DNA from: Candidatus Micrarchaeota archaeon
Lineage (GTDB): Archaea > Micrarchaeota > Micrarchaeia > Anstonellales > Bilamarchaeaceae
DNA: 64,000 nt
Assembly (NCBI GenBank): GCA_040753215.1
Contig: JBFMEZ010000013.1
Location: 18,911 to 82,910, forward strand
Direction of reading: 5' to 3'
The number at the start of each line of letters is the position of its first letter. Positions within the stretch are counted from its first letter, which is position 1. A program made the position numbers and the translations under genes. The notes beneath the pieces are model-generated. The model ran no database searches, was not told where the DNA came from, and saw only the letters and a list, made by a program, of their open reading frames with translations. This document shows, piece by piece, positions 9,382 to 64,000 of the stretch.

Positions 9382-9388
9382 AGAATCA

Positions 9389-9435
9389 TTCCGTTTTCCG
9401 TTTTCGGTTTCCAGTTTCGCGTTTTGTTTCCGTTT
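9389..9435. repeat. degenerate heptamer tract GTTTCC(A/G), representative of at least 13 dispersed tracts
   Basis: TTCCGTTTTCCGTTTTCGGTTTCCAGTTTCG; others at 10342, 28298, 29680, 30554, 30777, 42539, 46974, 48632, 49528, 51977, 54921, 56823, 57340, 62597. Confidence 0.85.
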
Positions 9436-10321: not shown

Positions 10322-10442
10322 CTAATCACGGTTTTCTGCCTGGGTTTCCAGTTTCCGGTTAACAGTTTCCAGAAGCTGAACAGCAGAATCCACAGTTAAT
10401 TCGTCCCAAACCCTATTAAAAGCTTCCTATCTGCCATATAGA

Positions 10443-13343: not shown

Positions 13344-13866
13344 AATCCAACGGCTCCAGCATGAGCGCGGCCATTCCAAGCTGCCCCGCCGCCCTCTCAG
13401 CTCTGCCCCCTTCTTTGTTCTTCTTCGCCTCCCCAACGCAGAAATCCACGAGCCTCCTTACGATTCTTTCCTCCTCCGCCTGGTTGCACACCGCAGCCCA
13501 GTGGCAGGCATCCACAGCTTCAAAGGCCCTTCCCGCAAGCACGAAGTTCCTCGCCGCCCTCTCATAAAGTTCGGAGGCGAGTTCCCGGTCTGCGCCCCTC
13601 TGCTCATCCGCCGCGGAGGAGAACTCCCTTCCGGCTTCCAAATACTTCCCGGCCTCCTCGAGGCACACTCCCGCCCTATCTGGAGGGATGCCCGCATCCT
13701 TCGCATTTGAAAATCTCGCGAGATTGGCCAGCAGGCGGGTTCTTTCCGCGGGGCCGATTCCATCCACCAGGTCCCCGTCCCTGCGCGGAGCCCTTCCGAT
13801 TCGGAATATGCGCAGAACCCTTGCGCTCCCGCCGGCCCCTTCCATCACCCATGCCCCCTTCCGCAC
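13282..13866 (-). CDS. SNAP/TPR-like alpha-helical repeat protein
   Basis: CLEEAGKYLEAG...ASELYERAARNFVLAG...AVDACHWAAVC; last gene of a four-gene array. Confidence 0.6.
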   Translation of the reverse strand: MRKGAWVMEGAGGSARVLRIFRIGRAPRRDGDLVDGIGPAERTRLLANLARFSNAKDAGIPPDRAGVCLEEAGKYLEAGREFSSAADEQRGADRELASELYERAARNFVLAGRAFEAVDACHWAAVCNQAEEERIVRRLVDFCVGEAKKNKEGGRAERAAGQLGMAALMLEPLDFTGAFSLMMKSELVGGKSHK

Positions 13867-28218: not shown

Positions 28219-29088
28219 ATGCACATCCTTTTCTCCTCCAAAAACCCTGCAAGCAACAATATTGCGCAGAGGCTCATGGAGATGGGCTTCAGCGAAGTTT
28301 CCGGTTCTCCGTATCCAGCTTCCAGAACGGGAAACTCAAACCGTGAAGCCCTGGGAAACCAGGGAAACGAAAGGGCGGCTTCACGGTTTGACAGGGAACA
28401 GGAAACCGGATACTGGGCTTGGAAAGGCCACAGGATGCTGGACACAAAGGTCGGGCTTATCCTTGATGTGCCCACGGATTGGGATGCGGATTGGCTTTTG
28501 GTGCTCTCCACGCACAGAAGCGAGAAGAAATTCCCCGCATTTACTGTGCACATTCCGGGCAACTGGGACAAGGCGGAGATGGGAGGCGAGCCCCGCACCC
28601 TCAACATTGCGTATGCGAGCAGGATGAAGGATTTGCTTCTTGCGCTTAGGGAGAAGAATACTCTGGGGTGGAATGTGAACCAAGAGGTCGACCATCATGG
28701 CCCCACCTGTAAACTTCCGATAATATTCATAGAAATAGGGAGTTCGGAGGAGGAATGGGTGAACCCTAAGGCGGCGGAAATAGTTGCGGAAGCGGTGATA
28801 GATTCCATAAATGAGAAGAAGCTCTATCCATCCTATGTTGGAGCGGGAGGGGGGCATTATGCGCCCTTCTTCACGAAATTGATGCTGGAATCCGAGGATG
28901 CGTTCGGGCACATAATTCCAAAATACCAGGCGGCGAACATCGGTGCGGATACGCTGAAGCAAGCGAAGGAGAAGAATGTGGAGAGGGTGGATACGCTGGT
29001 TTATGAAAACAAATCCTTCAGGGCAGGCGAGCGGGACAGGTTGTTTTCGATAGCGAAAGAGATTGGGCTGGAAGTTGAGATTCGCTAG
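28219..29088 (+). CDS. dtdA: archaeal D-aminoacyl-tRNA deacylase carrying an in-frame repeat insertion
   Basis: S..NPAS.NI, LSTHRS...P.FTVH.PGN, EVDHHGPT, F.EIGS.EEEW, GGGHYAP.F, GHI.PKY. Confidence 0.93.
   Translation: MHILFSSKNPASNNIAQRLMEMGFSEVSGSPYPASRTGNSNREALGNQGNERAASRFDREQETGYWAWKGHRMLDTKVGLILDVPTDWDADWLLVLSTHRSEKKFPAFTVHIPGNWDKAEMGGEPRTLNIAYASRMKDLLLALREKNTLGWNVNQEVDHHGPTCKLPIIFIEIGSSEEEWVNPKAAEIVAEAVIDSINEKKLYPSYVGAGGGHYAPFFTKLMLESEDAFGHIIPKYQAANIGADTLKQAKEKNVERVDTLVYENKSFRAGERDRLFSIAKEIGLEVEIR
28336..28391. repeat. palindromic element, subfamily A copy 1 (intragenic, in frame)
   Basis: TCAAACCGTGAAGCC-26 nt-GGCTTCACGGTTTGA, perfect 15-bp inverted repeat. Confidence 0.9.
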
Positions 29089-29642
29089 CCGAGTCCTGCC
29101 TTTATCTTTTCCAGAAGCATTTCGAATTTCGTATAGCCTGCCTTTTCGTTGAAATGCCCCGCGCTCTTTACAAGAATGATTTCCGTGCCCAGGTTCTTCG
29201 CCAGCTCTTCCGCCTTTTCCAGGGGAACGTATGGGTCGTTATCAGAGTGGAAAACATAGAACTTTTTGCAGTTGTCCCTTATCGCCTTCCAATCGAACTT
29301 TTTTTCAACGAATGTGGTCATTATCTCAGCAAACTCATTTTCGGGAAGAGAACAAAATCCAGCAACAAAGAATGCGGCTTTTGCAGGCTTTCTCTCCAGC
29401 ACGCTGAGCAGGAACGGAACCCCCAGACTATGCCCCACAACTATGGAATTCCCATCGATGTATTTCTCATAGTCCTGAAAAACCTTCAGCCATCTTTCCA
29501 GCGTCTGGTTTTCCGGCGTGGGAAATTTCGGAACAAATACTCTGCAGCCCAGCTTTTCAAGTTCGGATTTCAGCCACGGAAACCAGTTCTCACCCGGGTA
29601 GCCGTAAGCCCCGTGGATTATGAATATGTTGCTCTTTGCCAT
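29085..29642 (-). CDS. YdeN/RBBP9-family alpha/beta hydrolase
   Basis: IHGAYG....NWFPWL, GHSLG, HSDNDPYVP, AGHFN. Confidence 0.93.
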   Translation of the reverse strand: MAKSNIFIIHGAYGYPGENWFPWLKSELEKLGCRVFVPKFPTPENQTLERWLKVFQDYEKYIDGNSIVVGHSLGVPFLLSVLERKPAKAAFFVAGFCSLPENEFAEIMTTFVEKKFDWKAIRDNCKKFYVFHSDNDPYVPLEKAEELAKNLGTEIILVKSAGHFNEKAGYTKFEMLLEKIKAGLG

Positions 29643-29695
29643 CGGCTGGTGTTTGCACCCAACCTATAAAAACCAGCATCCCGGGAACCGGAAAC

Positions 29696-29752
29696 TCAAA
29701 CCGTGAAGCCCTGAGAAAAAGAGGGAAACGAATGGGCGGCTTCACGGTTTAA
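29696..29752. repeat. palindromic element, subfamily A copy 2 (intergenic)
   Basis: TCAAACCGTGAAGCC...GGCTTCACGGTTTAA flanked by GGGAACCGGAAAC and CCGAAAACTGAAA. Confidence 0.9.
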
Positions 29753-29766
29753 CCGAAAACTGAAAA

Positions 29767-29872
29767 TAGCCCCGACCGGATTCGAACCGGTGTCCGAAGG
29801 TCCAGAGCCTTCTTTCAGGACCGGGGTGGCTCGCGCCGCCCGGGTTATCCTTGACCACTAGACGACGGGGCT
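29767..29872 (-). tRNA. tRNA-Gln(CTG) with a 33-nt intron at about position 25/26
   Basis: AGCCCCG/CGGGGCT acceptor stem, GAAGG-CTCTGGA-CCTTC anticodon arm, ACCGG-TTCGAAT-CCGGT T-arm; 106 nt = 73 + 33. Confidence 0.92.
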
Positions 29873-29880
29873 AGCGTTAC

Positions 29881-30451: not shown

Positions 30452-30550
30452 AGCCAGGGGAGGGAATCGAACCCCCCTATGCCGGTTTCTTCTGTGGGAT
30501 TTCTCCCCCTGGAGCTGCAGCCGGCCACATAGCCTATCTGTCACCCTGGC
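30452..30550 (-). tRNA. tRNA-Cys(GCA) with a 28-nt intron at 37/38
   Basis: GCCAGGG/CCCTGGC acceptor, U discriminator, GCCGG-CTGCAG[intron]A-CCGGC, TTCGATT T-loop. Confidence 0.92.
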
Positions 30551-30652
30551 AGGCCAGTTTCCGGTTTCCAGTTCCCGGTTTCCAGAATCTGGCCTGGCAA
30601 TACTCTGGTGGGATTAAGGTATTAAAAAGCTACGCCGCTATTTTACCCTGCT

Positions 30653-30758: not shown

Positions 30759-31172
30759 ATCTCATTAATTTTGTTGCCGGTTTCCGGTTTCCCGTTTCCG
30801 GAAACTACGTCTGCAAAATTAGGTTTTTCTATTTCCTTTTTTGGCTTGTTTTTGGGGGGTTTCAAATATCTTGGGTTTTGGGCCCTACGGTTTTTGAAAT
30901 CCATATGTTTTTCACCTCATTTCTTGATATTTTTTCTTGATGTTTTTATACTTTTAGGGAGCATGTTTCCGATTAACACGCTCCGCTAGGCACGCCTGTT
31001 GCACGAGACGCGTCAGGCAACGGCCGAAAAAGCCTAGCGCGGAGCCGGTTTCACCTTATAACGTTCTGTATCGCTTCGCGATAACTGGCAGAAACCAGCG
31101 GGTTTCCGCCATCCGGTTCCTTGCTTTGGGGCTTATTTCAGCCTCAATCCATTCCAATTTCAAATTTCCTAG

Positions 31173-42127: not shown

Positions 42128-42540
42128 TCAAATCCCCTCCTGCATCTTCCTCACCTTCTCCAGCAGTTCATCATTATTCGCCCTCTCAATGCTCTCATAA
42201 AGCTCGTTCTTTGCAGTATGCACGTAAATCATCGTAGTCTGCAAGTTCGTATGCCGTGCAAACTTTGAGGCCAGAGCCACATTCCCCCCATTCTTCCTGC
42301 AGAAATTAGTAATCGCATAATGCCGAAGGCTATGGGTGCTCAACCTATACAGCGTCTTAGGACTTTCCCCAACGCTGTACCCGTAAACCTCATCCAGCTT
42401 GGCCTTCTTCACGTATTTCATGAAAAATTTCCTTGCGGTCTGGGAGGTGATGTATGGCTTTGTCTTGTCTGTCTTCGTCCCCTCCTCAAGGGAGAAGAAG
42501 AGGCTGCCTTGCCGAAAGGGATTGCGCTCTGCTGCAATCC
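42128..42540 (-). pseudogene. tyrosine recombinase/integrase C-terminal fragment
   Basis: HSLRHYAIT box II, ARHTNLQTTMIY catalytic His/Tyr; box I Arg region missing; 5' side ends in a heptamer tract. Confidence 0.85.
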
Positions 42541-42584
42541 GGAAACTCGAAACCAGGCACGGGAAACCCGTTCTTTCCGGCATT

Positions 42585-43205
42585 CTATTCTTTTTCCGGC
42601 GCAACAATCCTTTTTGCTAGGAAGAGAATTCTCAGCACGACCTCCAGCCCCATGAGCATGAGGAAAAACGGAAGCGCATCCCCTATGAGCTCCGCCATCT
42701 CCGCCAGCCGCTGCTCTATTATAAGCGGGGAGAATGTGGTCGGGGATGCGAGGAAAACCGCAAAAAGCGCTATGGGCACGGTTTTCGCCACATCAACCGC
42801 GATGTCCTCGTCCAAGTACGAGCAGATTCTTGTGGCTGCGACAAGCGATATCGAGATGAACATCATATCCGCAATGGAGGCGGTCTTGGATATGAAATAG
42901 AGGAATATGGTAAGCACGACGAACCAGACGAAAACCGCGAGAGGAAAGACAATCACGTACTCCAGCCCGAACTTCACCCTCTCCAGGACCTGCGGCACGA
43001 AGCCCTTGCCGACCTTCTTCCAGTCTATCTCGAATATGTTTCTCCTTGAGAAGGTTTTCCAGAATGTCCCGATGACGAGCGCATAGATGGTTATGGTGAG
43101 CACCATCATGGCCACGTTCGCCGTGCCCGCACCCAGCTGCGCCTGCAGCTGCGAGTAGAAGTTCCCGGCCGCTTCCGCCGCAACAAGAGTAAGGCTCTCT
43201 GCCAT
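42585..43205 (-). CDS. membrane protein of unknown function
   Basis: Four to five TM helices; ..RI.SY..ED.A.D.AK..P motif. Confidence 0.75.
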   Translation of the reverse strand: MAESLTLVAAEAAGNFYSQLQAQLGAGTANVAMMVLTITIYALVIGTFWKTFSRRNIFEIDWKKVGKGFVPQVLERVKFGLEYVIVFPLAVFVWFVVLTIFLYFISKTASIADMMFISISLVAATRICSYLDEDIAVDVAKTVPIALFAVFLASPTTFSPLIIEQRLAEMAELIGDALPFFLMLMGLEVVLRILFLAKRIVAPEKE

Positions 43206-43271
43206 GCGCCTGATAATCAGAAAAAGGTTAAATCGTTTGCCATTGTAACCATGGTTACATTACAATTCATT

Positions 43272-44580
43272 GTGAACTACCACCGGTCAAAGACCGGTGG
43301 CTTCCTGCTTCATAGAAGATACTTGCCCATTATGTTTATAATGGGTAGAGGTCTCCTCTCTGCAGGCGTTACTTCCCACAGTTCCTGCGGTAGCCATTTT
43401 TGCCAAACGGCCAGCTTGCTCGGTCGACCGTTTGGCAAACCTGAGTATGTTTATTGCTGCATTGAGGTCGCGGTGCATGGATGCGCCGCATGCGCATTTA
43501 TGCCATCTCTCTGCAAGCGATTTCTTCTGCACCAAACCGCAGCTGCTGCACGTCTGTGTTGTATGGGCAGGCTCAACCAGCACAACTTCGCAACCAGCAC
43601 TCTCAGCCTTGTATGCGAGCATGCTGCTAAATTCCGCCCAGCTGCAGTCCAGTACGGATTTTGCAAGGAATCCTTTTGCCAATCCTTTTGTATTCAGGTT
43701 TTCCATTGCAATGAAAGAATATTTTTCCACCAGCTTCCTGCTTGTTTTATGAAGGAAGTCCCTTCTTCGGTTCGCCAACTTTTCATAAGCCGATGCAACC
43801 TTCAGCCTTGCCTTTCTTCTGTTTTTGCTTCCCTTCTTTTTCCCGGAAAGGAAACGCTGCGCACTCTCCAGTTTTTCTTCGGCATTTTTCAGGTGCCGCG
43901 GGTTTTCCAGCATCGTTCCATCGCTGAGGCATGCGAAGTTCTCAATTCCAAGGTCGATTCCAACAGGCGGGCCGTCTTTCTTGGGAACCCGCTTCTCTTC
44001 TATTTCTGAAGTGAAAATGGCAAACCATTTCCCTGAAGGCATCCTCTTTATCGTGAGGGTCTTTATTTTTCCTGCAATTTCCCTGTGCTTTTCGATTTGG
44101 ATTTTGCCTATTCCCGAAAGTTCAAGCTTTTCATCCAGTACGAAGCCAAACTGTGGATATGTAAATGATTTCATCCTTTCCATGGTTTTGAACCTCGGGA
44201 AGCCTGCCTTCATGCCTGCTTTCCTTTTGAGCATCATGCCCCTCAGGCATTTTACGAGCCTGTCTGCAACGTTCTGCGCAACCTGGGAGAATAATGGTGT
44301 TCCTTTTGTCTGCAAATAGAGCTGCTGGCGCGTTGGAAATTTTCCTGTTTCCTTATAATATTTTTTTGTGTATTCTAGAAGGGAATTCCACAGCTCTTTG
44401 CACTCATGGAGGCATTCGCCCATTTGCTTTTCCTGGGACCTGGATGTGTAGAGCCGGAATTTCCATGCCCTTGTTCGCATATGCGACTCTGGCGCACGGC
44501 GGTTTATAAGGATTTCCCGGGTGTGATTCCAGTAATCGTTTATGGAGATTTTTGCATCCACCGGTCGCAGACCGGTGGAA
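43272..44580 (-). mobile_element. non-autonomous IS200/IS605-family (IS1341-like) element
   Basis: Related subterminal hairpins CCACCGGTC-N3-GACCGGTGG at 43280-43300 and 44558-44578; right end ...GGTAGTTCAC; tnpB only. Confidence 0.9.
43287..44480 (-). CDS. tnpB: TnpB RNA-guided endonuclease
   Basis: KFRLY, LWN..L, GFPRFK, RuvC-I VGIDLG, RuvC-II IAMENL, TTQTCS.CG...HKC.CG, RuvC-III HRDLNAAINIL. Confidence 0.96.
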   Translation of the reverse strand: MRTRAWKFRLYTSRSQEKQMGECLHECKELWNSLLEYTKKYYKETGKFPTRQQLYLQTKGTPLFSQVAQNVADRLVKCLRGMMLKRKAGMKAGFPRFKTMERMKSFTYPQFGFVLDEKLELSGIGKIQIEKHREIAGKIKTLTIKRMPSGKWFAIFTSEIEEKRVPKKDGPPVGIDLGIENFACLSDGTMLENPRHLKNAEEKLESAQRFLSGKKKGSKNRRKARLKVASAYEKLANRRRDFLHKTSRKLVEKYSFIAMENLNTKGLAKGFLAKSVLDCSWAEFSSMLAYKAESAGCEVVLVEPAHTTQTCSSCGLVQKKSLAERWHKCACGASMHRDLNAAINILRFAKRSTEQAGRLAKMATAGTVGSNACREETSTHYKHNGQVSSMKQEATGL

Positions 44581-46973: not shown

Positions 46974-47023
46974 CCTTCCAGTTCCCAGTTGCCCGTTCCC
47001 GGTTTCCCGTTTTCAGCATCTGG

Positions 47024-48584: not shown

Positions 48585-48752
48585 AAAACTCTCTTCCCTA
48601 GAGAAAACGCGGGGAGGGCGCTCCCCCTATTCAGTTTACTGTTTCCGGTTTCCAGTTTCCGGAACCCTAAACGGGAAACCGGGAACTCTCTGACCCCCTC
48701 CCACTTCGCTCAGCAATGCTTTGCACGCACTCCTTACGCTATGTCTTCAAAA

Positions 48753-49526
48753 CTAGAAAACCCGTTTTCCTATTTCTTTGGATAGAAATTCCGCCTCTTT
48801 TATTGCAGCGCTCTCCGGGCTTCCCCCTCTTTTCTCATGCGCAAAAGCAATTGAAGATGAAGAATTCACCCTGTGAATGAGCGGATTCCCCTTCAGCGCC
48901 TTCAGCACGTCGAAACCCCCGCCCTGCGCACCAATCCCGGGCACAAGGATGGGCACATCCTTCCCCACAAGCTTCACAATCCCCGGAAGCGCATCGCTCG
49001 TCGCCCCCACCACAAGCCCCGCGCCCATCTTCGCCGCCTTGGCACAAACCCTCTCATACACCCTCTCCTTCCCGCATTTCAGCTCCTCAAAATCCTTTGC
49101 CCCCGGATTGCTGGTCCTCCCAAGTACATACGCGACCTTCCCCCCCCTTATGAACGGGGCGATGGAATCCTCCCCCATATATGGCGCAACCGTCACCGCG
49201 TCCGCGCCCCAGAAATCGTACGCCTCCCTCGCATACGCCTCGCTGCTCTTCCCTATGTCCCCCCGTTTTGCATCCAGAATAACAAATGTTTTCTCCCGGT
49301 ACCTGTCCATAATCTGCTTGAGCGCATGCAGCCCCTCAAACCCGAGCGCCCCAAAATACGCATAGTTCGGCTTTATGGCAGAAATCAGATTCTCCTCCAG
49401 AAGCATGTCCGTTATACCGGAATAATACCCGACAATATCCTCCATCGGCTTAGGGTCTATGCCGAAGCACAAAATCGAGCCTGCCTCCACTGCCGCCTTC
49501 TCAAGCTTTCTTAGCGCCATACTCAT
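48753..49526 (-). CDS. pyrF: orotidine-5'-phosphate decarboxylase
   Basis: LCFGIDP, KPNYA.F, ILDAKRGDIG, TSNPGA, LVPGIGAQGG, NSSSSI. Confidence 0.95.
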   Translation of the reverse strand: MSMALRKLEKAAVEAGSILCFGIDPKPMEDIVGYYSGITDMLLEENLISAIKPNYAYFGALGFEGLHALKQIMDRYREKTFVILDAKRGDIGKSSEAYAREAYDFWGADAVTVAPYMGEDSIAPFIRGGKVAYVLGRTSNPGAKDFEELKCGKERVYERVCAKAAKMGAGLVVGATSDALPGIVKLVGKDVPILVPGIGAQGGGFDVLKALKGNPLIHRVNSSSSIAFAHEKRGGSPESAAIKEAEFLSKEIGKRVF

Positions 49527-49559
49527 CCCGTTTTCAGTCCCCAGTTTCCCGTTTCCTGC

Positions 49560-50201
49560 CTACTTTTCCGCCCCATACTCCCTTCTGTATTCCAAAAACC
49601 TCCTATAAATCCCCTCGCTGACTTGCTTCCCGCGCAATTCCTCAAATATTTCCGAGGTGCTCGCAACCGCCTTCACCGGCACGCCCGCCCTCTCCTCAAA
49701 TTCCTTTGCAGCAGGGCCGCCGCCCTCGCCCTTCTCCTCCCTGTCCACAGCCACAACAACGGCTTTCAATCTAACCCCTATGCCCTTCAATAAATCCACA
49801 TTCTCATACTTCGTCCCGCCAGTAGTGAAAACATCATCCACCAGCACAACGCTCTCTCCGGGCGCTGGCAAATGCCCCACGAATACCCCCCTGTCCCCGT
49901 GCGCCTTCTCCTCCTTCCTGTTGAACAGCCAATACACCCTCTTCCCTTTTTTTGAGAGCGCAATCGCAACGCCCACCGCGAGCGGAATCCCCTTGTACGC
50001 GGGCCCGTACACTACGTCGCACCCGCCAATCCCTTCTATCTTTTCCGCAAGGAACCCGCACAACTCCAAAAATTCCTTCCCTTCGCAGATGATTCCCGTG
50101 TTCACGAAATAAGGGCTCTTCCTCCCGCTTTTCAGGGTGAAGTCCCCAAACTTCAGCGCCCCGGTTTTCACCAGGAACTTCCCGATGCTTTTCTCCGCCA
50201 T
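49560..50201 (-). CDS. pyrE: orotate phosphoribosyltransferase
   Basis: FGDFTLKSGRKSPYF, GPAYKGIP, RKEEK.HG, LVDDVFTTG. Confidence 0.96.
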   Translation of the reverse strand: MAEKSIGKFLVKTGALKFGDFTLKSGRKSPYFVNTGIICEGKEFLELCGFLAEKIEGIGGCDVVYGPAYKGIPLAVGVAIALSKKGKRVYWLFNRKEEKAHGDRGVFVGHLPAPGESVVLVDDVFTTGGTKYENVDLLKGIGVRLKAVVVAVDREEKGEGGGPAAKEFEERAGVPVKAVASTSEIFEELRGKQVSEGIYRRFLEYRREYGAEK

Positions 50202-51656: not shown

Positions 51657-52589
51657 CTAACCTTTCCTTATCTTATACTCCTTCGTGATCTCCTTTATTC
51701 CCTCTTCCAATCTCCTTGGCTTAAACCCCAATTCCCTCCTCGCCCTCTCCCATCCGAACGCCCTGTCCCCGCCCAGTATCGCAACATGTTCTCTCGTAAG
51801 TTTCGGCTTCTTCCCGAAAAGCGCCCCCAGCTCCCGCACCCTTCCAATAAGGTTCGCCATCCAGAAAGACATGTGTTTTTTCGGGGGTGCAACCCCAAGC
51901 TCCCTGCACGCAATTCCATAAATCTCCTCCTGCGTTTTGCTCTCCCCGCAAACCACATAAGTCCCCTGCCCCGCGTCAGTTTCCAGTTTCCGGCTTCCAG
52001 TCTCCCCTCCCCCCGCGGCTGCCGCGATAGCCCGCGCCGCATCCTCCACATGCACGAAGGGAACCCTGTTCTTCCCGTCCCCTATAATGAACATCTTCCC
52101 TTTTTCCAGCATCCCCAGAATATAGAAATAATCCCCAAACTCCGGCCCATAGATGGTCCCAATCCTCAAAATCACGTGCCTCCCCTTCTTCCGCACAATC
52201 TCCTCCGCCTCCAGCTTGCTCCGCGAATAGGCCGAATCCGGGTGCGTGGGCGTCGCCTCATCAGCCGGAATCTCCTTCAATTTCTTCCCATATACAGAAA
52301 TGGAGCTCGCCAGCACGATCTTGCATCTCTCCGGAGAATTCTCAACAATCCTTCTCGTGAGCTCCACATTAGTTTTCCTCATCTCCCCCTCGTCCCAAAA
52401 TCGCATGGAGCCGGCAATATGAATAATACAGTCCGCATCCTTCAAAATCCTGCGCAAGCTCTCCGCCGAGAAGTCCGTAACAACCTCTCCCTTAAGCCCT
52501 TTTGCATTCCGGACCAGGGGCACCGCATCCACGAACCTGAGCACGTGCCTGCCCAATCTTCCAGAGGCGCCTGTAATGTAGATTTTCAC
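51657..52589 (-). CDS. NAD-dependent epimerase/dehydratase with a short repeat-derived insertion
   Basis: ITGASGRLG, H.AG, ASSISVYG, YSRSK, R...IYGP, FVHVED.A. Confidence 0.92.
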   Translation of the reverse strand: MKIYITGASGRLGRHVLRFVDAVPLVRNAKGLKGEVVTDFSAESLRRILKDADCIIHIAGSMRFWDEGEMRKTNVELTRRIVENSPERCKIVLASSISVYGKKLKEIPADEATPTHPDSAYSRSKLEAEEIVRKKGRHVILRIGTIYGPEFGDYFYILGMLEKGKMFIIGDGKNRVPFVHVEDAARAIAAAAGGGETGSRKLETDAGQGTYVVCGESKTQEEIYGIACRELGVAPPKKHMSFWMANLIGRVRELGALFGKKPKLTREHVAILGGDRAFGWERARRELGFKPRRLEEGIKEITKEYKIRKG

Positions 52590-54416: not shown

Positions 54417-55556
54417 TCATAACCCCCCATCAAATAGTATAGCACTTTCCCTGGTCCTTATCTTCTGCGACCTCACATCCGCAATCCTTTCCTTCACCGC
54501 GGCAATCCTTCCAGAAAATCCTATTCTCTCCCCAATCCGAATAAGGATCTCATCCACTGGTATATGCCTCCCCCCCAGCACCGAATTCCCCACAACCATG
54601 CATCCGCACGGCGCAATCCTTTTCAAATTCCGCAGCACCCTCTCCATGTCCGCAAAATACGTCCCCGCGATGGGGATATCCAGATAATCATCCGCCTCCG
54701 GAGGCGCATCCCCAAACGATTCCCCGGTTATGAAGCCCCTCACTTCTTTCGCCCGCATTATTTTCGTACTATCTTTTTCCATGGTCAATAGGCTCAGCTC
54801 CAGCCCATAAACTTTGGAATAATCTATATAGTTCAGGTAGGGCGGCGAGGTCACGAACGCATCCGCCTTCCAATCCTCGAACTCCCGCGCATCTTCCAAT
54901 TTTAATTCCGGCTCCACAGTCAGTTTCCTGTTCCCCGTTTCCGGTTTCCTTTCTCTCTCCCGCAAATCCGCAACCATCCTCTTCACTTTCCGTTTAAACG
55001 CATCCTTAACCGGCATGGCGCTTTTCGAGGGCTCCTCCCGCAAGACCCCCCCATCCTTTATGAAAAATCCCACCTGCGGCAAAATAGATAGCAGCGCAAG
55101 CAAAAACAGCCCGCCCACCCCCTCATTCTCAATTTCCTCAATGCTTTCCCTCAAATGTCGTATATCGTTATAGTTCCTCTTCCCGAAAAACCGCGAAGGA
55201 TGGAACAGCTCAAACTGCCATATCCACCCCGGCTCTTTCCGTTCCTTAAACATCCCTTTCAATTCCCTCTCCGCCTCCTCCGCGTCCTTTTCCGAATAGT
55301 CCGCGCATTTCGTTTTCGTCACAAACAGCGCGAGGGGCGAAACATCTATCCCAATCCCCTTCATCCCGTGCTCCTTCGCATAGAGCATAGTAGTCCCGAT
55401 TCCGCAGAAAGGGTCGAACACTGTCCCGCCCTTCACTCCAAGCTCGCCCAATGCCCACTCCACCAATTGCGGAGAGTATGCCTCCTTGTAATAGAACCAG
55501 TTGTGCACGGGAATATCCTTCGCAGGCTCGAAGGTGAAATAGTCCCCTATTTCCAT
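54417..55556 (-). CDS. orphan DNA amino-methyltransferase (N4-C/N6-A)
   Basis: H.W..YKEAYSP.LV, VFDPFCGIGTT motif I, VTSPPY motif IV, VVGNS. Confidence 0.88.
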   Translation of the reverse strand: MEIGDYFTFEPAKDIPVHNWFYYKEAYSPQLVEWALGELGVKGGTVFDPFCGIGTTMLYAKEHGMKGIGIDVSPLALFVTKTKCADYSEKDAEEAERELKGMFKERKEPGWIWQFELFHPSRFFGKRNYNDIRHLRESIEEIENEGVGGLFLLALLSILPQVGFFIKDGGVLREEPSKSAMPVKDAFKRKVKRMVADLRERERKPETGNRKLTVEPELKLEDAREFEDWKADAFVTSPPYLNYIDYSKVYGLELSLLTMEKDSTKIMRAKEVRGFITGESFGDAPPEADDYLDIPIAGTYFADMERVLRNLKRIAPCGCMVVGNSVLGGRHIPVDEILIRIGERIGFSGRIAAVKERIADVRSQKIRTRESAILFDGGL

Positions 55557-55606: not shown

Positions 55607-56821
55607 ATGGAAGGCGTGCAAAGAACACTCTTCGCATCCGCGGCACAGGATATAGCAAGAGAAATGGCAGGCAGGAGACTTAGTGCGCAGGGCAGAATGC
55701 ATTCCTCCGCCCGCCCCATGCTTTTCAGGAGGCTCAGGAAGTATTCCCATCCTATTTATGGCCGCACGAGTTCCGGCCATCCTATACTCACCTTCCCATT
55801 GGACGTGCTCAACGTGGATGCGCGCGACCCCGCGAACGTCAGGATGTTCTTCAGGAGGGAGGAGAGGCTCCCGGCTGATTTCAGGGCCGGTCAGCCGGTC
55901 CCCCGCAGGCACGTTATGCACGTTTCAGATATTTTCCATGCGGTCCGCCAGCTCGCGCACGTTGCCGAAACCCACCGGCAGGAGCGGGGAAAAACCAATT
56001 CCGCGCTCGAGCTCGTGGAGCAGATAAACGCGAAGCTCATGGTGTTCGCGCAGAATGCAAGGGGCACGGAGGCGGCGAAGGCGGCCAACCGGGAGATGGA
56101 GGCGATGCCCGAGATGAGGGCCCTTGCCTCGGCATACAAGCACATGGCCCTTGAGCAGCTCCAGAAGGCGCTCCGCCTTCTTGGGGAAGCGGAGAACAGC
56201 CCAAGGGCGAACCTGAAGCTCGGGGCCGCGTGCGCCTGTCTGGTCTCATTCCGCGCGCGCATGGGCGAATGGCGCGTGAGGCAGACCTTCAACATAGACG
56301 CTTACGACGAGCTGCGCGAGGCCTCCCTGCGCCTGCGCAGGGATAAGTACGTGCAGGGCCTCCTTGAATATTATGTTGAGATGCTCTCGGGCCCGAGGGC
56401 TTTCCAGGCCGCAAAGGCGGCTGTGGAGAACCACATACTTTCAGGCAAGCTCAGGGATTTCCATGGCTCAATACCAAAAGGCAGGGAATGGAGGAATGAA
56501 GCGCGCAGGCTCCTCTGCGCAATCGGCCTGTCCCTCCCGCAGGAATCCGCCACGCGGAAGCTGCTCAGGGGCGCATACAGGCTTGCAGGGGAGGGCACCA
56601 AGGAGGAATTCGAGGAGAGGATGGGAGCTATCACCAGGCCCCTTCTCGTGCGCGACCTTCCTTACGCCGCGGACGAGCTTGAGAGGTCCAGCGAGCCCTA
56701 CCGCATCCCAGTGATAGAAAAAATACGGTCCGGGTTCGCGGCAGTAGAGAAGAACACTCCCGCGGATGCGGTCCCGCTTTTCCAGGAAGCAGCCGAAATC
56801 CTCAGGAGGCCGGACCAGTAG
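55607..56821 (+). CDS. alpha-helical hypothetical protein
   Basis: Long ORF with TTTAAA box about 25-30 nt upstream; no known motif. Confidence 0.65.
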   Translation: MEGVQRTLFASAAQDIAREMAGRRLSAQGRMHSSARPMLFRRLRKYSHPIYGRTSSGHPILTFPLDVLNVDARDPANVRMFFRREERLPADFRAGQPVPRRHVMHVSDIFHAVRQLAHVAETHRQERGKTNSALELVEQINAKLMVFAQNARGTEAAKAANREMEAMPEMRALASAYKHMALEQLQKALRLLGEAENSPRANLKLGAACACLVSFRARMGEWRVRQTFNIDAYDELREASLRLRRDKYVQGLLEYYVEMLSGPRAFQAAKAAVENHILSGKLRDFHGSIPKGREWRNEARRLLCAIGLSLPQESATRKLLRGAYRLAGEGTKEEFEERMGAITRPLLVRDLPYAADELERSSEPYRIPVIEKIRSGFAAVEKNTPADAVPLFQEAAEILRRPDQ

Positions 56822-56871
56822 TCGGTTTCCCGTTTCCCGCTTCCAGTTACCCGTATTCGGTTGCCGTTCCA

Positions 56872-57283: not shown

Positions 57284-57339
57284 TCAAACCGTGAAGCCAC
57301 GGGAAACCAAGGGAACGATTGGGCAGCTTCATGGTTTGA
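57284..57339. repeat. palindromic element, subfamily A copy 3 (between divergent genes)
   Basis: TCAAACCGTGAAGCC...AGCTTCATGGTTTGA followed by GTTTCCCGTTTCCAG. Confidence 0.88.
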
Positions 57340-60287: not shown

Positions 60288-60536
60288 ATGACAAGTGAGA
60301 TAAATGTGACTTTTCGTAATGTCGATAGGGATGTTCTGCAGGATTTCAGGGCAGAGGCGGTAAGGGAAAACAGAACATTCGGGCAGGCGCTGGCCGAAGC
60401 CCTTCTTCTATGGCTGCAGCACAGAAGGATGGCCCGCAAAAAGAAAATGAAGCTCTCTGCTTCGAAACCTCTCGACTTCGGCCCCGGCACGGAGCGGCTG
60501 AGCGAAAGGGCAGACGAGATTCTTTACGGCCGGTGA
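60288..60536 (+). CDS. vapB: VapB-like antitoxin (RHH-type)
   Basis: VTFRNVD......FRA.A......GQAL.EAL; DFG.GTE.LSE..DEILYG; overlaps the PIN gene. Confidence 0.8.
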   Translation: MTSEINVTFRNVDRDVLQDFRAEAVRENRTFGQALAEALLLWLQHRRMARKKKMKLSASKPLDFGPGTERLSERADEILYGR

Positions 60537-60934
60537 TTGGCATCTCCGTGCTCCTGGACACCTCTTTTCTGGTTGCCTATTATGACAAAAGGGACCAGAA
60601 CCATCCAGCTGCAGTCCGGCTGGTCGGAGAGCTCGAAACAGGGAAGTTTGGCAGGCTCATAATTTCAGAGTATGTTTTTGACGAACTGATGACAATCCTG
60701 AAAAAATTTGTGGGAAAAGCAAAGGCTGCTGAAAAGGGCAGGGACATCCTGAACTCGCTTGATTTCCTCCAGGCGGATTCCAAAGTGTTCCAGCTTGGCT
60801 GGGAGCTTTTCAAAAAATCCGAGGGATTGAGTTTCACCGACTGCTATCTGGTCGCTGCGATGAAACACTACAACATTGAGTATCTGGCTACCTTTGATTC
60901 CGGATTTCATGGCATTGTGAAGGTTTTGCGGTAG
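60533..60934 (+). CDS. vapC: VapC PIN-domain toxin
   Basis: LLDTSFLVA, D.NH, V.DE..T, LSFTDC, ATFD.GF. Confidence 0.92.
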   Translation: MIGISVLLDTSFLVAYYDKRDQNHPAAVRLVGELETGKFGRLIISEYVFDELMTILKKFVGKAKAAEKGRDILNSLDFLQADSKVFQLGWELFKKSEGLSFTDCYLVAAMKHYNIEYLATFDSGFHGIVKVLR

Positions 60935-61013: not shown

Positions 61014-62159
61014 GTGAAACTCGTCTTTGATGGAAAAGAAATATATGCAGAAGACGCGGAGAACGTAAGCTCCCTGGCAAAAGGGTTCTTCGGGAAGATA
61101 AAAGGAGGAAAGGTTTTCCTCTCCCCGGGGGAGGCCCTTTACCTTATGGACAACCGCAACGCGGAGTGCGCAAGCCCGGGCGGAAGACCCATCCGATTCA
61201 ATTCCCTTGCCTCCTCCTTTTCCAAATCGCCCAAGCTCCTCGCCCGCTACCTGGTTTTGAAGGACTGGAGGGAGCGCGGCCTCATCGCCCGCGATGCAAA
61301 GGAAATACTGGGAAAATTCAGCCGCTCCGCAGCGGTAAGCTATCCGAGCTCGCCCTTCCCTCTTCCCCCCGTCTCACTCAGCGGCGTCTTCTTCCCTGAG
61401 GATATGCTCACAACAATAGATTCCCCCGAAGGGAAAAAACTCTATGAGGAAGGATGGTTCGGCCAGTTCGGCACATACAAGGCGGCTCACAAGGGAAAAA
61501 TCACAAAGCTGGACGCATTCGAAACCCTTTATCTCCTAAAGAAAGGCATCCTCGCAGTCCCGGATTCCAGTTTCAAGAAAATACTCTCCCATGCTGAAAG
61601 GCGAATCCATTTCTTCCAGGAGATGTATGAAGTATATGAAGACTGGAGGGAGAAGGGCTTCGTGGTAAAGACCGGGTTCAAGTTCGGCTCCCATTTCCGC
61701 ATATATTTCCCAGGCGCCTCGCCGGTGAAGGGCGGGGAATGGGCCCACTCAAAGCACGTCCTCCATGTATTTCCGAGGAAGAGCAAGCTCCTCATCTCCG
61801 AGTGGTCCCGCGCAATACGCCTCGCCCATTCCGTGAAGAAGACGTTCATACTCGCGGTTCCCGGAAAGAAAGCAAAGCCCATCCGGATCTGCGACTTCGC
61901 CCTCTACCACAGGAAGGGCGCGGAATGCGAAACCCCCAAATCCGGAGAGCCGTCCTTCCTCGCCCTCGCCCTCACCGAGGACGAATACCTGGGGGGGATA
62001 GAGTTCGCCCAGGCCCTGGAGGAGTGCGCGGAGCGCGGCCTCGAGCTGGTAATCGCAATCGCGGACCGCGAAACCTCCGTAACGTATTACTTAATAAAGA
62101 AAGTAAATCTTCCCGGAAGCAGATTCGACTATTTCGAAATCCGGTGGCTCAACCCCTAG
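61014..62159 (+). CDS. endA: tRNA-intron endonuclease, three-unit epsilon-like architecture
   Basis: 381 aa; non-catalytic unit (LSPGEALYL, YLV.KDWRERG), catalytic unit (VKTGFKFGSHFRIY, HSKH, AHSVKK), terminal beta-like unit (IAIADRETSVTYY). Confidence 0.92.
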   Translation: MKLVFDGKEIYAEDAENVSSLAKGFFGKIKGGKVFLSPGEALYLMDNRNAECASPGGRPIRFNSLASSFSKSPKLLARYLVLKDWRERGLIARDAKEILGKFSRSAAVSYPSSPFPLPPVSLSGVFFPEDMLTTIDSPEGKKLYEEGWFGQFGTYKAAHKGKITKLDAFETLYLLKKGILAVPDSSFKKILSHAERRIHFFQEMYEVYEDWREKGFVVKTGFKFGSHFRIYFPGASPVKGGEWAHSKHVLHVFPRKSKLLISEWSRAIRLAHSVKKTFILAVPGKKAKPIRICDFALYHRKGAECETPKSGEPSFLALALTEDEYLGGIEFAQALEECAERGLELVIAIADRETSVTYYLIKKVNLPGSRFDYFEIRWLNP

Positions 62160-62542: not shown

Positions 62543-62596
62543 TCAAACCAAACCCCCGCTTTCGCGCCTCATTTTGGCTCTGGAGGTTTGGTTTGA
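62543..62596. repeat. palindromic element, subfamily B copy 1 (supplies the stop codon of the HD gene)
   Basis: TCAAACCAAACC...GGTTTGGTTTGA perfect 12-bp IR, then GTTCCCGGTTTCCGGAAAC. Confidence 0.85.
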
Positions 62597-63120
62597 GTTC
62601 CCGGTTTCCGGAAACTTGGCCTGCGCACCCGGCATCTATCTAAAAATTCCCTGGAAATTTTTATTCTTGGATTTCCAACCCGTTTCCCTTCTTTTGTGTA
62701 GAATTTGGCTTTGTTTATGTTTCGGAGCATTATCCTGAGTGTCTCTTCAGTCGTCTGTTTTCTTTCCTTCCCTGCCTGCAATGCCTTCCGGATTCCGAAT
62801 TTCCCGACCGCCTCAAGGAGATTCGCATCGCTCACCAGTTTTTCTTCTACCGATTCCGGCTTTGTGGTATGGCGATACAATGCCCGTAGATAGGATTTGG
62901 GGAATCCCATGCGCAGGATTTGCTGTTTATGTTTCTGCACGTAACCCTTCAGCCCATGGAAATAAATCAGAAACCATAGCTTGCCATCATCGATTCTGGA
63001 GTAGCCTTTCCTCAGCCTTGCGACCTTTGCCCTTATCCGTAGGATATGGCTGAAATTATGCATGCTGTCCTTTTTCCTGTAAAGCGGCTCTACGAACCTT
63101 ATGATTTCCTTTGTCCGCAT
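62569..63120 (-). CDS. HD-domain-like protein
   Basis: HNFSHILR, YFHGL, DANLLEAVG.FGI.K. Confidence 0.75.
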   Translation of the reverse strand: MRTKEIIRFVEPLYRKKDSMHNFSHILRIRAKVARLRKGYSRIDDGKLWFLIYFHGLKGYVQKHKQQILRMGFPKSYLRALYRHTTKPESVEEKLVSDANLLEAVGKFGIRKALQAGKERKQTTEETLRIMLRNINKAKFYTKEGKRVGNPRIKISREFLDRCRVRRPSFRKPGTQTKPPEPK

Positions 63121-63121
63121 G

Positions 63122-63478
63122 CTATTTGCCTTCCGCCTTTTCAAGCTCAGAAAGCATTTTGCTTATCTGTGGCTTTACCCTGAGTATTTCTTCGGTGGCA
63201 ACCTTCCAGACAATCTGCTCGTCAATCCCGAAATACTCGTGGATGAGCTTATCGCGCATCCCCGCCATCTTCTTCCATGGAACATCCGGGTATTGCTTCT
63301 GCAAGGATGCGGGAACTTTCTTTGACGCTTCGCCTATTATCTCAAGGCTGCGCACGACAGCATTTATTGTTTTCCTGTCGTCCATGAAACCAGCCAGGGA
63401 TAAGCGAGAAGTGAAGTTTTCTATGTCCTTTATCGACTCAAGAATGTCCTGCAGGTAATCCAGGTATTCCCTCTTCAT
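63122..63478 (-). CDS. hepT: HEPN (DUF86) RNase toxin
   Basis: AVVRSLEIIGEA, PW..M.GMRDKLIHEYFG Rx4-6H motif. Confidence 0.93.
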   Translation of the reverse strand: MKREYLDYLQDILESIKDIENFTSRLSLAGFMDDRKTINAVVRSLEIIGEASKKVPASLQKQYPDVPWKKMAGMRDKLIHEYFGIDEQIVWKVATEEILRVKPQISKMLSELEKAEGK

Positions 63479-63768
63479 ATGTAAACCGCCTCCTGCAGTA
63501 TGTGGCGGCCTATGCGGGGCTTCAGCGCCCTCTTTGAAACGAGGTCCACTTCAACTCCGACCAGCTTCTCGAGGTATTCCTCAAGGTCCATGAAATGAAA
63601 AAGCCCAACCGGCTCGCGGAATTCCACCAGCACGTCCAGGTCGCTCTTTTTCTTCTGCTTCCCCCGGACATAGGACCCGAATAGCCCAAGGGACTTGACC
63701 TTGAAGCGGTCCTGCATCTCTTTCTTGTGGCCGGAGAGTATCCGCACAAACTCTTCGAGTTTTTTCAA
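63475..63768 (-). CDS. mntA: minimal nucleotidyltransferase (MNT) antitoxin
   Basis: LFGSYVRG.Q...SDLDVLVEF, VDLV...ALKP; TTG start with GGTGA upstream. Confidence 0.93.
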   Translation of the reverse strand: MKKLEEFVRILSGHKKEMQDRFKVKSLGLFGSYVRGKQKKKSDLDVLVEFREPVGLFHFMDLEEYLEKLVGVEVDLVSKRALKPRIGRHILQEAVYI

Positions 63769-63816
63769 TTCCTTCACCAGTAGGAGTATCCGGCTGCTTA
63801 TGTGAACTACCACCGG

Positions 63817-63999
63817 TCAAAGACCGGTGGCTTCCTGCTTCGTAGAAGATACTTGCCCATTATGTTTATAATAGGTAGAGGCCTCCTCTTGACAGGCATA
63901 ACTAAACCGAACCTCCGCTCTTTCCGTCCCACTTCTGCTCTGGAGGTTCGGTTTACTTCCCGCAGTTCCTGCGGTAGCTCTTCTCAGCATATTTATCGC
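63817..63999 (-). CDS. tnpB: C-terminus of a second TnpB (partial)
   Basis: AINMLRRATAGTAGS[KPNLQSRSGTERAEVRFS]YACQEEASTYYKHNGQVSSTKQEATGL*. Confidence 0.88.
   Translation of the reverse strand, partial: AINMLRRATAGTAGSKPNLQSRSGTERAEVRFSYACQEEASTYYKHNGQVSSTKQEATGL
63903..63955. repeat. palindromic element, subfamily B copy 2 (in-frame insertion in tnpB)
   Basis: TAAACCGAACCTCC...GGAGGTTCGGTTTA perfect 14-bp IR; absent from tnpB copy 1. Confidence 0.9.
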
Positions 64000-64000
64000 C

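Follow-up and report, generated by a model that had tools for sequence, protein, structure and literature searches.

A 54-bp in-frame palindrome in the omega-RNA-like 3' end of one of two tnpB copies in a Micrarchaeota archaeon

In a 64-kb stretch of a Candidatus Micrarchaeota genome (positions 18,911 to 82,910 of contig JBFMEZ010000013.1; hereafter, the window), the two copies of the mobile-element gene tnpB differ by a 54-nt palindrome that lies in frame within the 3' end of copy 2 and is confirmed to be present only in that copy. Quite probably, these 54 bp represent a genuine and relatively recent insertion of a short palindromic repeat with a perfect stem that is specific to this genome and has been tolerated in copy 2. 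The block has counterparts elsewhere in the window, is missing from all related tnpB genes that were compared, and interrupts a conserved junction of an RNA structure supported by covariation. The coordinates of all features are given in Table 1.

The palindrome and its absence from copy 1 and from relatives

An initial annotation of this DNA had proposed an in-frame 54-bp palindrome in copy 2 that copy 1 lacks, and both the alignment of the two right ends and their translations bear this out. The affine-gap global alignment, from which the boundaries are taken, opens a single gap of 54 nt at 63903–63956; default MAFFT left it unopened. On the plus strand, the block reads TAAACCGAACCTCC-25 nt-GGAGGTTCGGTTTA-C, with arms that pair perfectly over 14 bp (63903–63916 and 63942–63955) around the 25-nt loop; the repeat finder extends the arms to 17 nt at 94% complementarity. 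The length of the insert is a multiple of three and it contains no stop codon in the tnpB reading frame, such that the translation changes from GS-NAC in copy 1 to GS-KPNLQSRSGTERAEVRFS-YAC in copy 2. The empty site of copy 1 reads GTTAC|TTCCC at 43372|43373 (GGGAAGT^AACGCC on the sense strand, where AGT is the single ACT), and the copy 1 string quoted in the initial annotation, CAGGCGTTACTTCCC, occurs once in the window, at 43363–43377.

The trinucleotide ACT flanks the insert as a direct repeat (63901–63903 and 63955–63957), as against the one ACT of copy 1 (43371–43373). A possible 2-bp duplication had been suggested here; a direct repeat is indeed present, although it comprises 3 nt, its boundary is ambiguous, and it does not recur at the other pairs of empty and filled sites. 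Because T and A of the repeat also lengthen the palindrome, the element could be either 51 bp with a 3-bp duplication or 53–54 bp without one.

To polarize the difference, we compared C-terminal tails anchored on the last RuvC motif, HRDLNAA. Of the 118 other homologous proteins listed, not one has the KPNLQSRSGTERAEVRFS block, nor does any of 48 related loci have the corresponding DNA. Because the block is missing from copy 1 as well as from all these homologues and loci, an insertion in the lineage of copy 2 is supported as far more parsimonious than a deletion in copy 1. The initial annotation had reached the same polarity and had pointed out that copy 1 would have to be a deletion if most related tnpB ends carried the hairpin; the comparison of right ends that it proposed finds the block in copy 2 alone.

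The host of the insertion is assignable to the tnpB-only IS200/IS605 (IS1341-type) elements. Copy 1 matches PF12323, PF01385 and PF07282 (HTH_OrfB_IS605, OrfB_IS605 and Cas12f1-like TNB), and the 1.3-kb element contains no second open reading frame (ORF). It is bounded by a left-end hairpin, CCACCGGTC-TGC-GACCGGTGG, at 44560–44580 and a right-end hairpin, CCACCGGTC-TTT-GACCGGTGG, at 43280–43300, with the right end at 43272; the end hairpins are judged on copy 1, the left end of copy 2 lying outside the window. When relatives were searched for such end hairpins so as to define the left-end flank and the transposon-adjacent motif (TAM), only the copy in the window itself turned up. The full product of copy 2 (P0002, 400 aa) is encoded on the same 133-kb contig as that of copy 1 (P0001) and has the same domains in the precomputed annotation (HTH, OrfB_IS605, TNB). 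Its identity to copy 1 is 80% in the homologue listing and 84% in alignment A2, and the right ends (43271–43373 and 63801–63903) pair at 92% identity (repeat finder, family D2). The catalytic (D/E/D) columns of RuvC and the cysteine columns of the zinc finger are invariant in a 60-sequence alignment that includes both copies. Copy 2 is presumably still functional. Relatives of the TnpB protein come from genomes of Candidatus Micrarchaeota (DPANN archaea) and from sediment and groundwater metagenomes.

The RNA scaffold and the protein tail that share the insertion site

The 3' part of tnpB also encodes a structured RNA, as judged by covariation. To derive a consensus, 17 insertion-free relatives were aligned between the RuvC-III codons and the right end, and the alignment was folded. 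It comprises 37 base pairs, with 96.5% of 620 cells paired and changes on both sides in 21 of the 37 pairs; none of 500 shuffles reached the real values, and slid controls gave at most 9 double-change pairs and ~40% pairing. The consensus consists of a closing helix P1 (GAGCU with AGUUC), the stem S1 (CCGNNG-GAA-CNNCGG), an unpaired but conserved S1/S2 junction (GGGAAGUCAAG), the long composite stem S2/S3, and the right-end hairpin S4, followed by UAGUUCAC. In position and general character, this putative structure matches the omega-RNA scaffold of TnpB. No Rfam 15 family was found at the gathering score for either the scaffold or the palindromes, nor did permissive thresholds yield one, the best match being RAGATH-18 (21.3 bits, E = 0.14, cut-off 44.9), a guide-RNA motif of TnpB from which the right-end RNAs (reRNAs) of IS607 TnpBs are derived (PMC11061315). 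The sub-threshold matches, to RAGATH-18 and to a plastid 3' untranslated region hairpin, were not used as evidence.

The insert of copy 2 is located in the S1/S2 junction, directly past the invariant T63 (GGGAAGT|NANGCC). The junction reads GGGAAGU-insert-UAUGCC, compared to the consensus GGGAAGUCAAGCC, and the bases G58, A60, T63, A65, G67 and C68 are all kept despite the insert. In the minimum-energy fold of 63802–63985 on the minus strand (−76.1 kcal/mol, z = −6.1), P1, S1, S2/S3 and S4 are retained, and the insert forms a plain hairpin as a separate extra branch. Thus, the insert is predicted to add one RNA branch while leaving the helices of the scaffold intact. Together with the covariation-backed structure of the tnpB 3' end, this fold supports the proposal of the initial annotation that the palindrome alters the C-terminus of TnpB and the omega-RNA scaffold at once.

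On the protein side, the insertion adds 18 residues, 356–373 of P0002. In an AlphaFold2 model built from the 60-sequence alignment, the last helix (336–349) holds the RuvC-III motif, and residues 349–400 have no secondary structure and a predicted local distance difference test (pLDDT) score of 27–32. Hence, the 18 residues lengthen a tail that is probably disordered. Cleavage by ISDra2 TnpB does not require the equivalent C-terminal domain, which is disordered and overlaps the functional omega-RNA (PMC10097598).

The tail of copy 2 is not the only one to have acquired extra sequence. About 22 of 120 homologues have in-frame tail insertions of 13–19 aa at two or three recurring sites, and those for which DNA is available mostly form one or two hairpins, in some cases with compensatory changes between lineages (for example, L017 versus L028). 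Three relatives (L002, L009 and L015) carry an unrelated hairpin of 36–39 nt in the same S1/S2 junction as copy 2, and others have two-hairpin modules between P1 and S1. Over the related loci L001–L048 and proteins P0003–P0120, the hairpins sit in the interval from P1 to S1, within the S1/S2 junction, or immediately past it. Because in-frame hairpin insertions recur at these sites across relatives, the tnpB tail is a permissive hot spot that has repeatedly accepted extra hairpins, and the event in copy 2 is not a one-off. The differences in tail length among relatives are almost all multiples of three; because tail indels keep the frame nearly universally, these differences suggest that the reading frame of the tail is under some constraint. 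The frame is kept in these relatives although the homologous domain of ISDra2 is dispensable in vitro.

Copy 1 itself has a palindromic insertion of this kind, just 5' of the scaffold stem P1, which the initial annotation overlooked; given this insertion, copy 1 is no clean reference for copy 2. The palindrome of copy 1 is missing from copy 2 and from the related loci examined, and no second copy of it was detected in the window or in 89 loci scanned. It is not part of the dispersed palindrome family described below.

The dispersed palindrome family and its filled and empty sites

The insert in copy 2 belongs to a family of five palindromes in the window, 52–56 bp in length, with the ends (T/C)AAACC…GGTTT(G/A) and stems of 12–15 bp. 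When oriented by their loops, the five are 62–89% identical. A perfect 14-bp stem with such a loop, as in tnpB, is not expected by chance; after mononucleotide shuffling, the window yields only 0.28 AAACC…GGTTT hairpins with stems of 8 bp or more, compared to five real ones with stems of 12–15 bp. Three palindromes form subfamily A, with arms CAAACCGTGAAGCC and 80–89% mutual identity; the tnpB insert and the palindrome at 62543–62596 form subfamily B, with arms (C/T)AAACC(A/G)AACC(C/T)CC. All five copies, in both subfamilies, have homologous loops, whose purine-rich sequences (…GGGAAACGAAAGGGC and …GGGACGGAAAGAGC) set the orientation, plus for subfamily A and minus, that is, tnpB sense, for both members of subfamily B. 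The initial annotation had noted arms shared between the insert and 62543–62596, and the likeness indeed holds from end to end, loop included, at 73% identity, with two compensatory arm changes (C-G to T-A and A-T to G-C).

The four other members of the family have flanks unrelated to the insertion sequence. The view that the palindrome originated outside the mobile element is supported by these four unrelated contexts and by a polymorphism in the gene for D-aminoacyl-tRNA deacylase described below. The reverse transfer, with 62543–62596 as a decayed right end of the insertion sequence, was rejected: the right-end sequence has only two copies in the window, and the flanks of this palindrome match heptamer tracts and not the scaffold. 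Outside the window, similar palindromes were found in other Micrarchaeota contigs (one each in L011 and L046 and two in L042), and the scanned viral contigs contained no match to either subfamily and hence no sign of a viral source.

Tracts of GGAAAC/GTTTCC-type heptamers adjoin four of the five palindromes in the window, and the tnpB insertion site, AGGAACUGCGGGAAG|U, resembles such a tract. The heptamer core motif occurs 144 times in the window, compared to ~62 expected. The tandem GTTTCCN/NGGAAAC tracts comprise 3–5 units and lie mostly at gene boundaries, sometimes inside ORFs; they flank a tRNA-Ile gene on both sides, an inverted array forms a hairpin at 48641–48687, and the tract at 30550–30596 is missing from the orthologous position in relatives. 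The two L042 palindromes (56–60 nt, at 83–142 and 13397–13452) have arms that are heptamer motifs (AAACCGGAAAC…GTTTCGGGTTT), a composition that apparently links the heptamer tracts with the palindromes.

Related palindromes also distinguish filled from empty sites at other loci. In the D-aminoacyl-tRNA deacylase gene of the window (DtdA, PF04414; 28219–29088), the reading frame continues across both a heptamer tract and a 56-bp palindrome. Its orthologues P0122 and P0123 (82–84% identical) have the peptide RETGNAEQETG, encoded by four heptamers, and no palindrome; the respective DNA sequences are GGGAAAC-TGGAAAC-GCGGAAC-AGGAAAC in L089 and L088 and GGGAAAC-TCAAACC…GGTTTGA-CAGGGAAC-AGGAAAC in the window. 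More distant orthologues lack both the palindrome and the heptamers. The insert region (28292–28410) thus appears to have a stepwise history, from neither feature to heptamers only and then to heptamers with a palindrome. The window gene differs from the orthologues by 50 nt and by a further 16 nt upstream, which together restore the frame. It is the close homologues that resolve this insertion; solved structures align only from residue ~90, beyond the N-terminal insertion.

Compared with nine homologues, a second gene, encoding an HD-like hypothetical protein (62569–63144, minus strand), has a C-terminal extension of 15–17 residues (…RPSFRKPGTQTKPPEPK). A heptamer tract and an arm of the 62543 palindrome encode these residues, and the palindrome contains the stop codon. 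A third site lies outside the window. In L011, a tRNA-Thr(CGT) gene is split past the anticodon by a 56-nt TAAACC…GGTTTA palindrome (11704–11762), and in the sister contig L012 (4549–4620), with flanks ~98% identical to those of L011, this gene is intact. The insertion falls on or beside the canonical 37/38 intron position, with an ambiguity of 2 nt (AA), and the difference between the contigs is apparently a recent gain or loss. The tnpB and tRNA-Thr inserts both follow G-T, and in both the added block is AAACC…GGTTT-AG(T/A); a direct repeat is found at the former and not at the latter. Directly 3' of the tRNA-Thr gene, L011 also has a mini-palindrome, TAAAACCGA-TTAGG-TTCGGTTTA, that is not present in L012.

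Further differences from relatives surround the subfamily-A palindrome at 29697–29752. In the neighboring tRNA-Gln(CTG) gene (~29766–29873, minus strand), an extra segment of ~33 nt, CCCGGGCGGCGCGAGCCACCCCGGTCCTGAAAGAA, separates the D arm from the anticodon stem; this segment is missing in the L088 orthologue and is probably a non-canonical intron gained in the lineage of the window. The gene was missed by ARAGORN under default settings and by Rfam at the gathering score and was mis-called as tRNA-Arg in the intron mode of ARAGORN. The interval between DtdA and tRNA-Gln (29085–29752) contains a serine-hydrolase gene and the palindrome, both missing from the corresponding interval of L088 (10807–10891), and the palindrome sits at the edge of this difference in gene content.

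As to the surroundings of the two tnpB copies, a toxin-antitoxin pair consisting of a HepT-like RNase and an MNT nucleotidyltransferase (63122–63813, minus strand) directly adjoins the right end of copy 2, and because of this adjacency, the putative guide segment of copy 2 falls in the 5' region of the pair. A PIN-domain gene (60410–60934, plus strand) lies nearby. About 700 bp from copy 1 is a C-terminal fragment of a tyrosine recombinase (42128–42607, minus strand; Phage_integrase, profile positions 104–171 only), hinting at an older integrated element.

Table 1. Positions of the tnpB copies, RNA elements, palindromes and heptamer tracts in the window
Feature	Positions	Strand	Remarks
tnpB copy 1	43287–44561	−	GTG-start ORF, 424 aa; ATG-start product P0001, 397 aa, to 44480
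tnpB copy 2, 3' end	63817–64000	−	last 60 codons; stop codon 63817–63819; gene runs past the window edge
Palindromic repeat (subfamily B) in tnpB copy 2	63903–63956	−	encodes KPNLQSRSGTERAEVRFS on the minus strand
Empty site of copy 1, homologous to the insertion point in copy 2	43371–43373	−	single ACT on the plus strand
Omega-RNA-like scaffold, copy 2	63802–63980	−	covariation consensus; ends with UAGUUCAC at 63802
P1 5' strand of copy 2, GAGCU	63976–63980	−	scaffold consensus
S1 of copy 2	63960–63974	−	scaffold consensus
Inserted hairpin of copy 2	~63901–63958	−	scaffold fold
S2/S3 of copy 2	~63836–63896	−	scaffold consensus
S4 of copy 2, right-end hairpin CCACCGGTC-TTT-GACCGGTGG	63810–63830	−	scaffold consensus
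Putative guide segment of copy 2, flank past the right end	63782–63801	−	by analogy with characterized TnpB systems (PMC10097598)
Omega-RNA-like scaffold, copy 1	43272–43396	−	right-end hairpin 43280–43300
Palindrome of copy 1, TTTGCCAAACGG-17 nt-CCGTTTGGCAAA	43399–43439	−	42-nt in-frame insertion, peptide FAKRSTEQAGRLAKM
Subfamily-A palindrome in DtdA gene, TCAAACCGTGAAGCC-26 nt-GGCTTCACGGTTTGA	28336–28391	+	in frame
Subfamily-A palindrome	29697–29752	+	~15 nt past the 3' end of the minus-strand tRNA-Gln gene, upstream of serine-hydrolase gene
Subfamily-A palindrome	57284–57339	+	between divergent RNase H and bPH_2-domain genes; GTTTCC-type heptamers on both sides
Subfamily-B palindrome, closest relative of the insert	62543–62596	−	1.3 kb from the insert, same orientation; adjoins heptamer tract 62597–62616
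Heptamer tracts	10344–10371, 30557–30584, 30780–30806, 46981–47008, 48641–48687, 54923–54950, 62597–62616		
Weaker heptamer tracts	9388–9423, 28292–28327, 49525–49560, 51974–52009, 56820–56855		

Origin of the insert, known counterparts and significance

Under the explanation that we consider probable, the repeat would be a small non-autonomous, non-coding unit that is copied into new sites, often ones rich in GGRAAC. In tnpB copy 2, it would have entered right past GGGAAGT, which resembles the GGRAAC heptamer tracts, at the conserved single-stranded S1/S2 junction of the scaffold that the final ~180 nt of the element specify. Such an insertion could be tolerated by virtue of its length, a multiple of three, its lack of in-frame stops and its capacity to fold on itself. 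The insertions that persist would then be ones that cause little damage, for example, multiples of three in surface or disordered segments of proteins and self-contained hairpins in permissive RNA junctions, with a spliceable position in a tRNA as a further example. Movement of the palindromes by transposition is our inference; they would be moved in trans by a hairpin-recognizing enzyme, for which a single-strand transposase of the IS200/IS605 TnpA or REP-associated tyrosine transposase (RAYT) type is a reasonable guess.

Several observations weigh against this explanation. No transposase or other partner that could move the palindromes, and no RAYT or TnpA gene, was seen in the window. There is no consistent target-site duplication, the ACT/ACT repeat at tnpB having nothing comparable at DtdA or tRNA-Thr. 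The difference at DtdA, with its additional 16 nt upstream of the 50 nt, is more than a clean insertion, and local repeat dynamics, rather than transposition, may account for part of the variation. Finally, with the nearest relative only 73% identical to the insert, no donor copy is in view within the 64-kb window.

Two alternatives, both of which we regard as unlikely, deserve the most attention. One is that the hairpin is a selected accessory stem of the copy 2 omega-RNA, a host palindrome recruited for stability, protein binding or regulation; the S1/S2 junction would then be a site at which TnpB lineages gain useful stems time and again. The perfection of its arms is compatible with such a role, as are the frequent hairpin-forming tail insertions of the relatives (~22 of 120 homologues), the compensatory changes seen between L017 and L028, and the occurrence of another hairpin at the exact same junction in L002, L009 and L015. 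However, the insert of copy 2 is unique among ~170 relatives and gives no sign of retention over time, and the presence of the family in a host enzyme gene, at the 3' end of another gene and in spacers looks like indiscriminate spread followed by filtering. This alternative bears on the consequence of the event alone and is compatible with an origin by insertion.

The other alternative, to which we likewise assign a low probability, concerns the mechanism. A nearby palindrome, for example 62543–62596, could have been the source of the block through ectopic gene conversion or template switching, or the block could have grown locally from a heptamer-like sequence by snap-back errors of replication. 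The nearest relative indeed lies at a distance of just 1.3 kb and has the same orientation, and CAAACC/GGTTTG, the outer arms, are similar to the GGAAAC/GTTTCC heptamers alongside. The heptamer-derived arms of the L042 palindromes and the complex local change at DtdA somewhat favor local mechanisms, and the hairpin formed by the inverted heptamer array at 48641–48687 and the lack of a consistent target duplication point the same way. Nevertheless, at 73% identity, the 62543 copy is not a direct donor; gene conversion normally needs flanking homology, and here the flanks are unrelated except for GGGAA. Moreover, the homologous loops of five copies in two subfamilies argue for the copying of a pre-existing unit rather than for growth in place.

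We consider it still less probable, indeed very improbable, that the palindrome is an intron-like element with a bulge-helix-bulge motif that is cut out of the tnpB mRNA and the omega-RNA by a three-unit splicing endonuclease of broad specificity, in which case neither the mature RNA nor the protein would be altered. The attraction of this idea stems from the tRNA-Thr insert of L011, which occupies the canonical 37/38 site and leaves the cloverleaf intact in the fold. A near-canonical motif can be drawn for it by hand, made up of a central helix (CUCG/UUAG, 3 of 4 pairs formed), two bulges (UA|A and AA|A) and the anticodon stem. Its junctions, GUA|AACC…GGUUUAGNN|A, are also those of the tnpB insert. 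Furthermore, the window encodes a tRNA intron endonuclease (381 aa; 61014–62159, plus strand) with two matches to the N-terminal domain and one catalytic domain, and the Candidatus Micrarchaeum enzyme of that type cleaves strict as well as relaxed motifs (PMC3239211). However, hand-drawn pairings of the flanks yield no outer helix for either the copy 2 insert or the DtdA copy and, of 4 central pairs, at most 2 for the former and none for the latter; the bulge-helix-bulge motif was accordingly rejected for both inserts. The minimum-energy fold is a plain hairpin without bulges, and preservation of the frame in tnpB and DtdA would be unneeded if the palindromes were spliced out. The endonuclease gene, located ~400 bp from the 62543 palindrome, fits the three-unit enzyme of Candidatus Micrarchaeum. 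Least credible is the deletion of the hairpin from copy 1 or an artefact of assembly: palindromes are easily deleted and may mislead assemblers, but the block occurs in none of the 118 other homologues listed or the 48 related loci, has homology to four other loci, with compensatory changes in the arms, is an exact multiple of three in length and leaves all invariant junction bases in place.

If the palindromes indeed spread as insertions, the closest counterparts in behavior are the Rickettsia palindromic elements (RPEs) and intragenic transposable elements of the miniature inverted-repeat type (MITEs), such as the QMITEs of Coxiella, and the closest in form are hairpins of the repetitive extragenic palindromic (REP) kind. 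Like the RPEs, which are dispersed palindromes that lie in frame in genes, are translated and occur in or beside RNA genes (PMC10969869; PMC5896051), the palindromes described here are in frame in tnpB and DtdA, where they would be translated, and extend the C-terminus of the HD-like gene. Unlike the bacterial RPEs of ~100–150 bp, they are single perfect hairpins of 52–56 bp, unrelated in sequence and found in a DPANN archaeon, with neither a clear target duplication nor a known autonomous partner. Accordingly, the comparison with RPEs is a working analogy and not a claim of homology. With regard to MITEs more generally, the terminal inverted arms of 12–15 bp and the five dispersed copies in 64 kb are typical of such elements; of a fixed-length target duplication there is the ACT at tnpB and no comparable repeat at DtdA or tRNA-Thr. 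Similarly to REPs and bacterial interspersed mosaic elements (BIMEs) moved by RAYTs, these are short multi-copy hairpin repeats inserted without regular target duplication (PMC3733652; PMC3184786), and by analogy, a hairpin-recognizing single-strand transposase is plausible as the mover. However, REPs are extragenic, imperfect palindromes of 20–40 bp with a GTAG/CGTC tag, whereas the palindromes in the window are longer, lack the tag, end in (T/C)AAACC, and overlap reading frames in two to three of the five cases. An IS200/IS605-derived palindrome-associated element was considered and rejected; the stems are unlike the end hairpins of the insertion sequence, CCACCGGTC…GACCGGTGG.

The target of the insertion also has known parallels. 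As in the ISDra2 omega-RNA, the scaffold would derive from the 3' end of tnpB and the right end of the element and overlaps a tail that is disordered and dispensable in ISDra2 (PMC10097598); in that system, peripheral stems can be altered without loss of activity, and deletion of stem 3b improves editing (PMC10097598). In contrast to the ISDra2 and RAGATH-18 scaffolds, the present one is defined by covariation alone, and it has naturally gained a foreign hairpin in a conserved junction. Full-text literature searches found no report of a foreign palindrome inserted in a TnpB omega-RNA scaffold. Micrarchaeota have a splicing endonuclease of broad specificity and many disrupted tRNA genes, and, like archaeal bulge-helix-bulge introns, a related palindrome occupies the canonical intron site of tRNA-Thr in one contig and not in its sister (PMC4090602; PMC3239211; PMC3293823). 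Unlike those introns, the tnpB insert and the DtdA copy form no such motif with their flanks.

A broader reading, which seems to us rather unlikely, is that the palindromes constitute an undescribed class of mobile intron-like hairpins of Micrarchaeota that settle in a tRNA, a host enzyme and a guide RNA and are either removed by the endonuclease or folded aside. If true, this class would join the gain of tRNA introns, in-frame selfish DNA and natural remodeling of the TnpB scaffold in one system. Regardless of that, the tRNA-Thr palindrome at the intron site, polymorphic between nearly identical contigs, provides a testable lead on the gain of tRNA introns in archaea.

Taken together, these observations describe a known kind of element in an unusual target. 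The notion of a selfish palindrome inside genes, best known from Rickettsia, would be extended to an archaeon of the DPANN group whose genome is very small, with clean pairs of filled and empty sites. For TnpB, the insertion represents a natural experiment on the guide-RNA scaffold, in which a foreign 14-bp helix has been placed in a conserved junction and a sister copy, as well as relatives with other hairpins, are available for comparison. The insertions map the sites that accept cargo in the RNA and in the protein tail overlapping it, and such a map can help to understand and to engineer compact RNA-guided nucleases.

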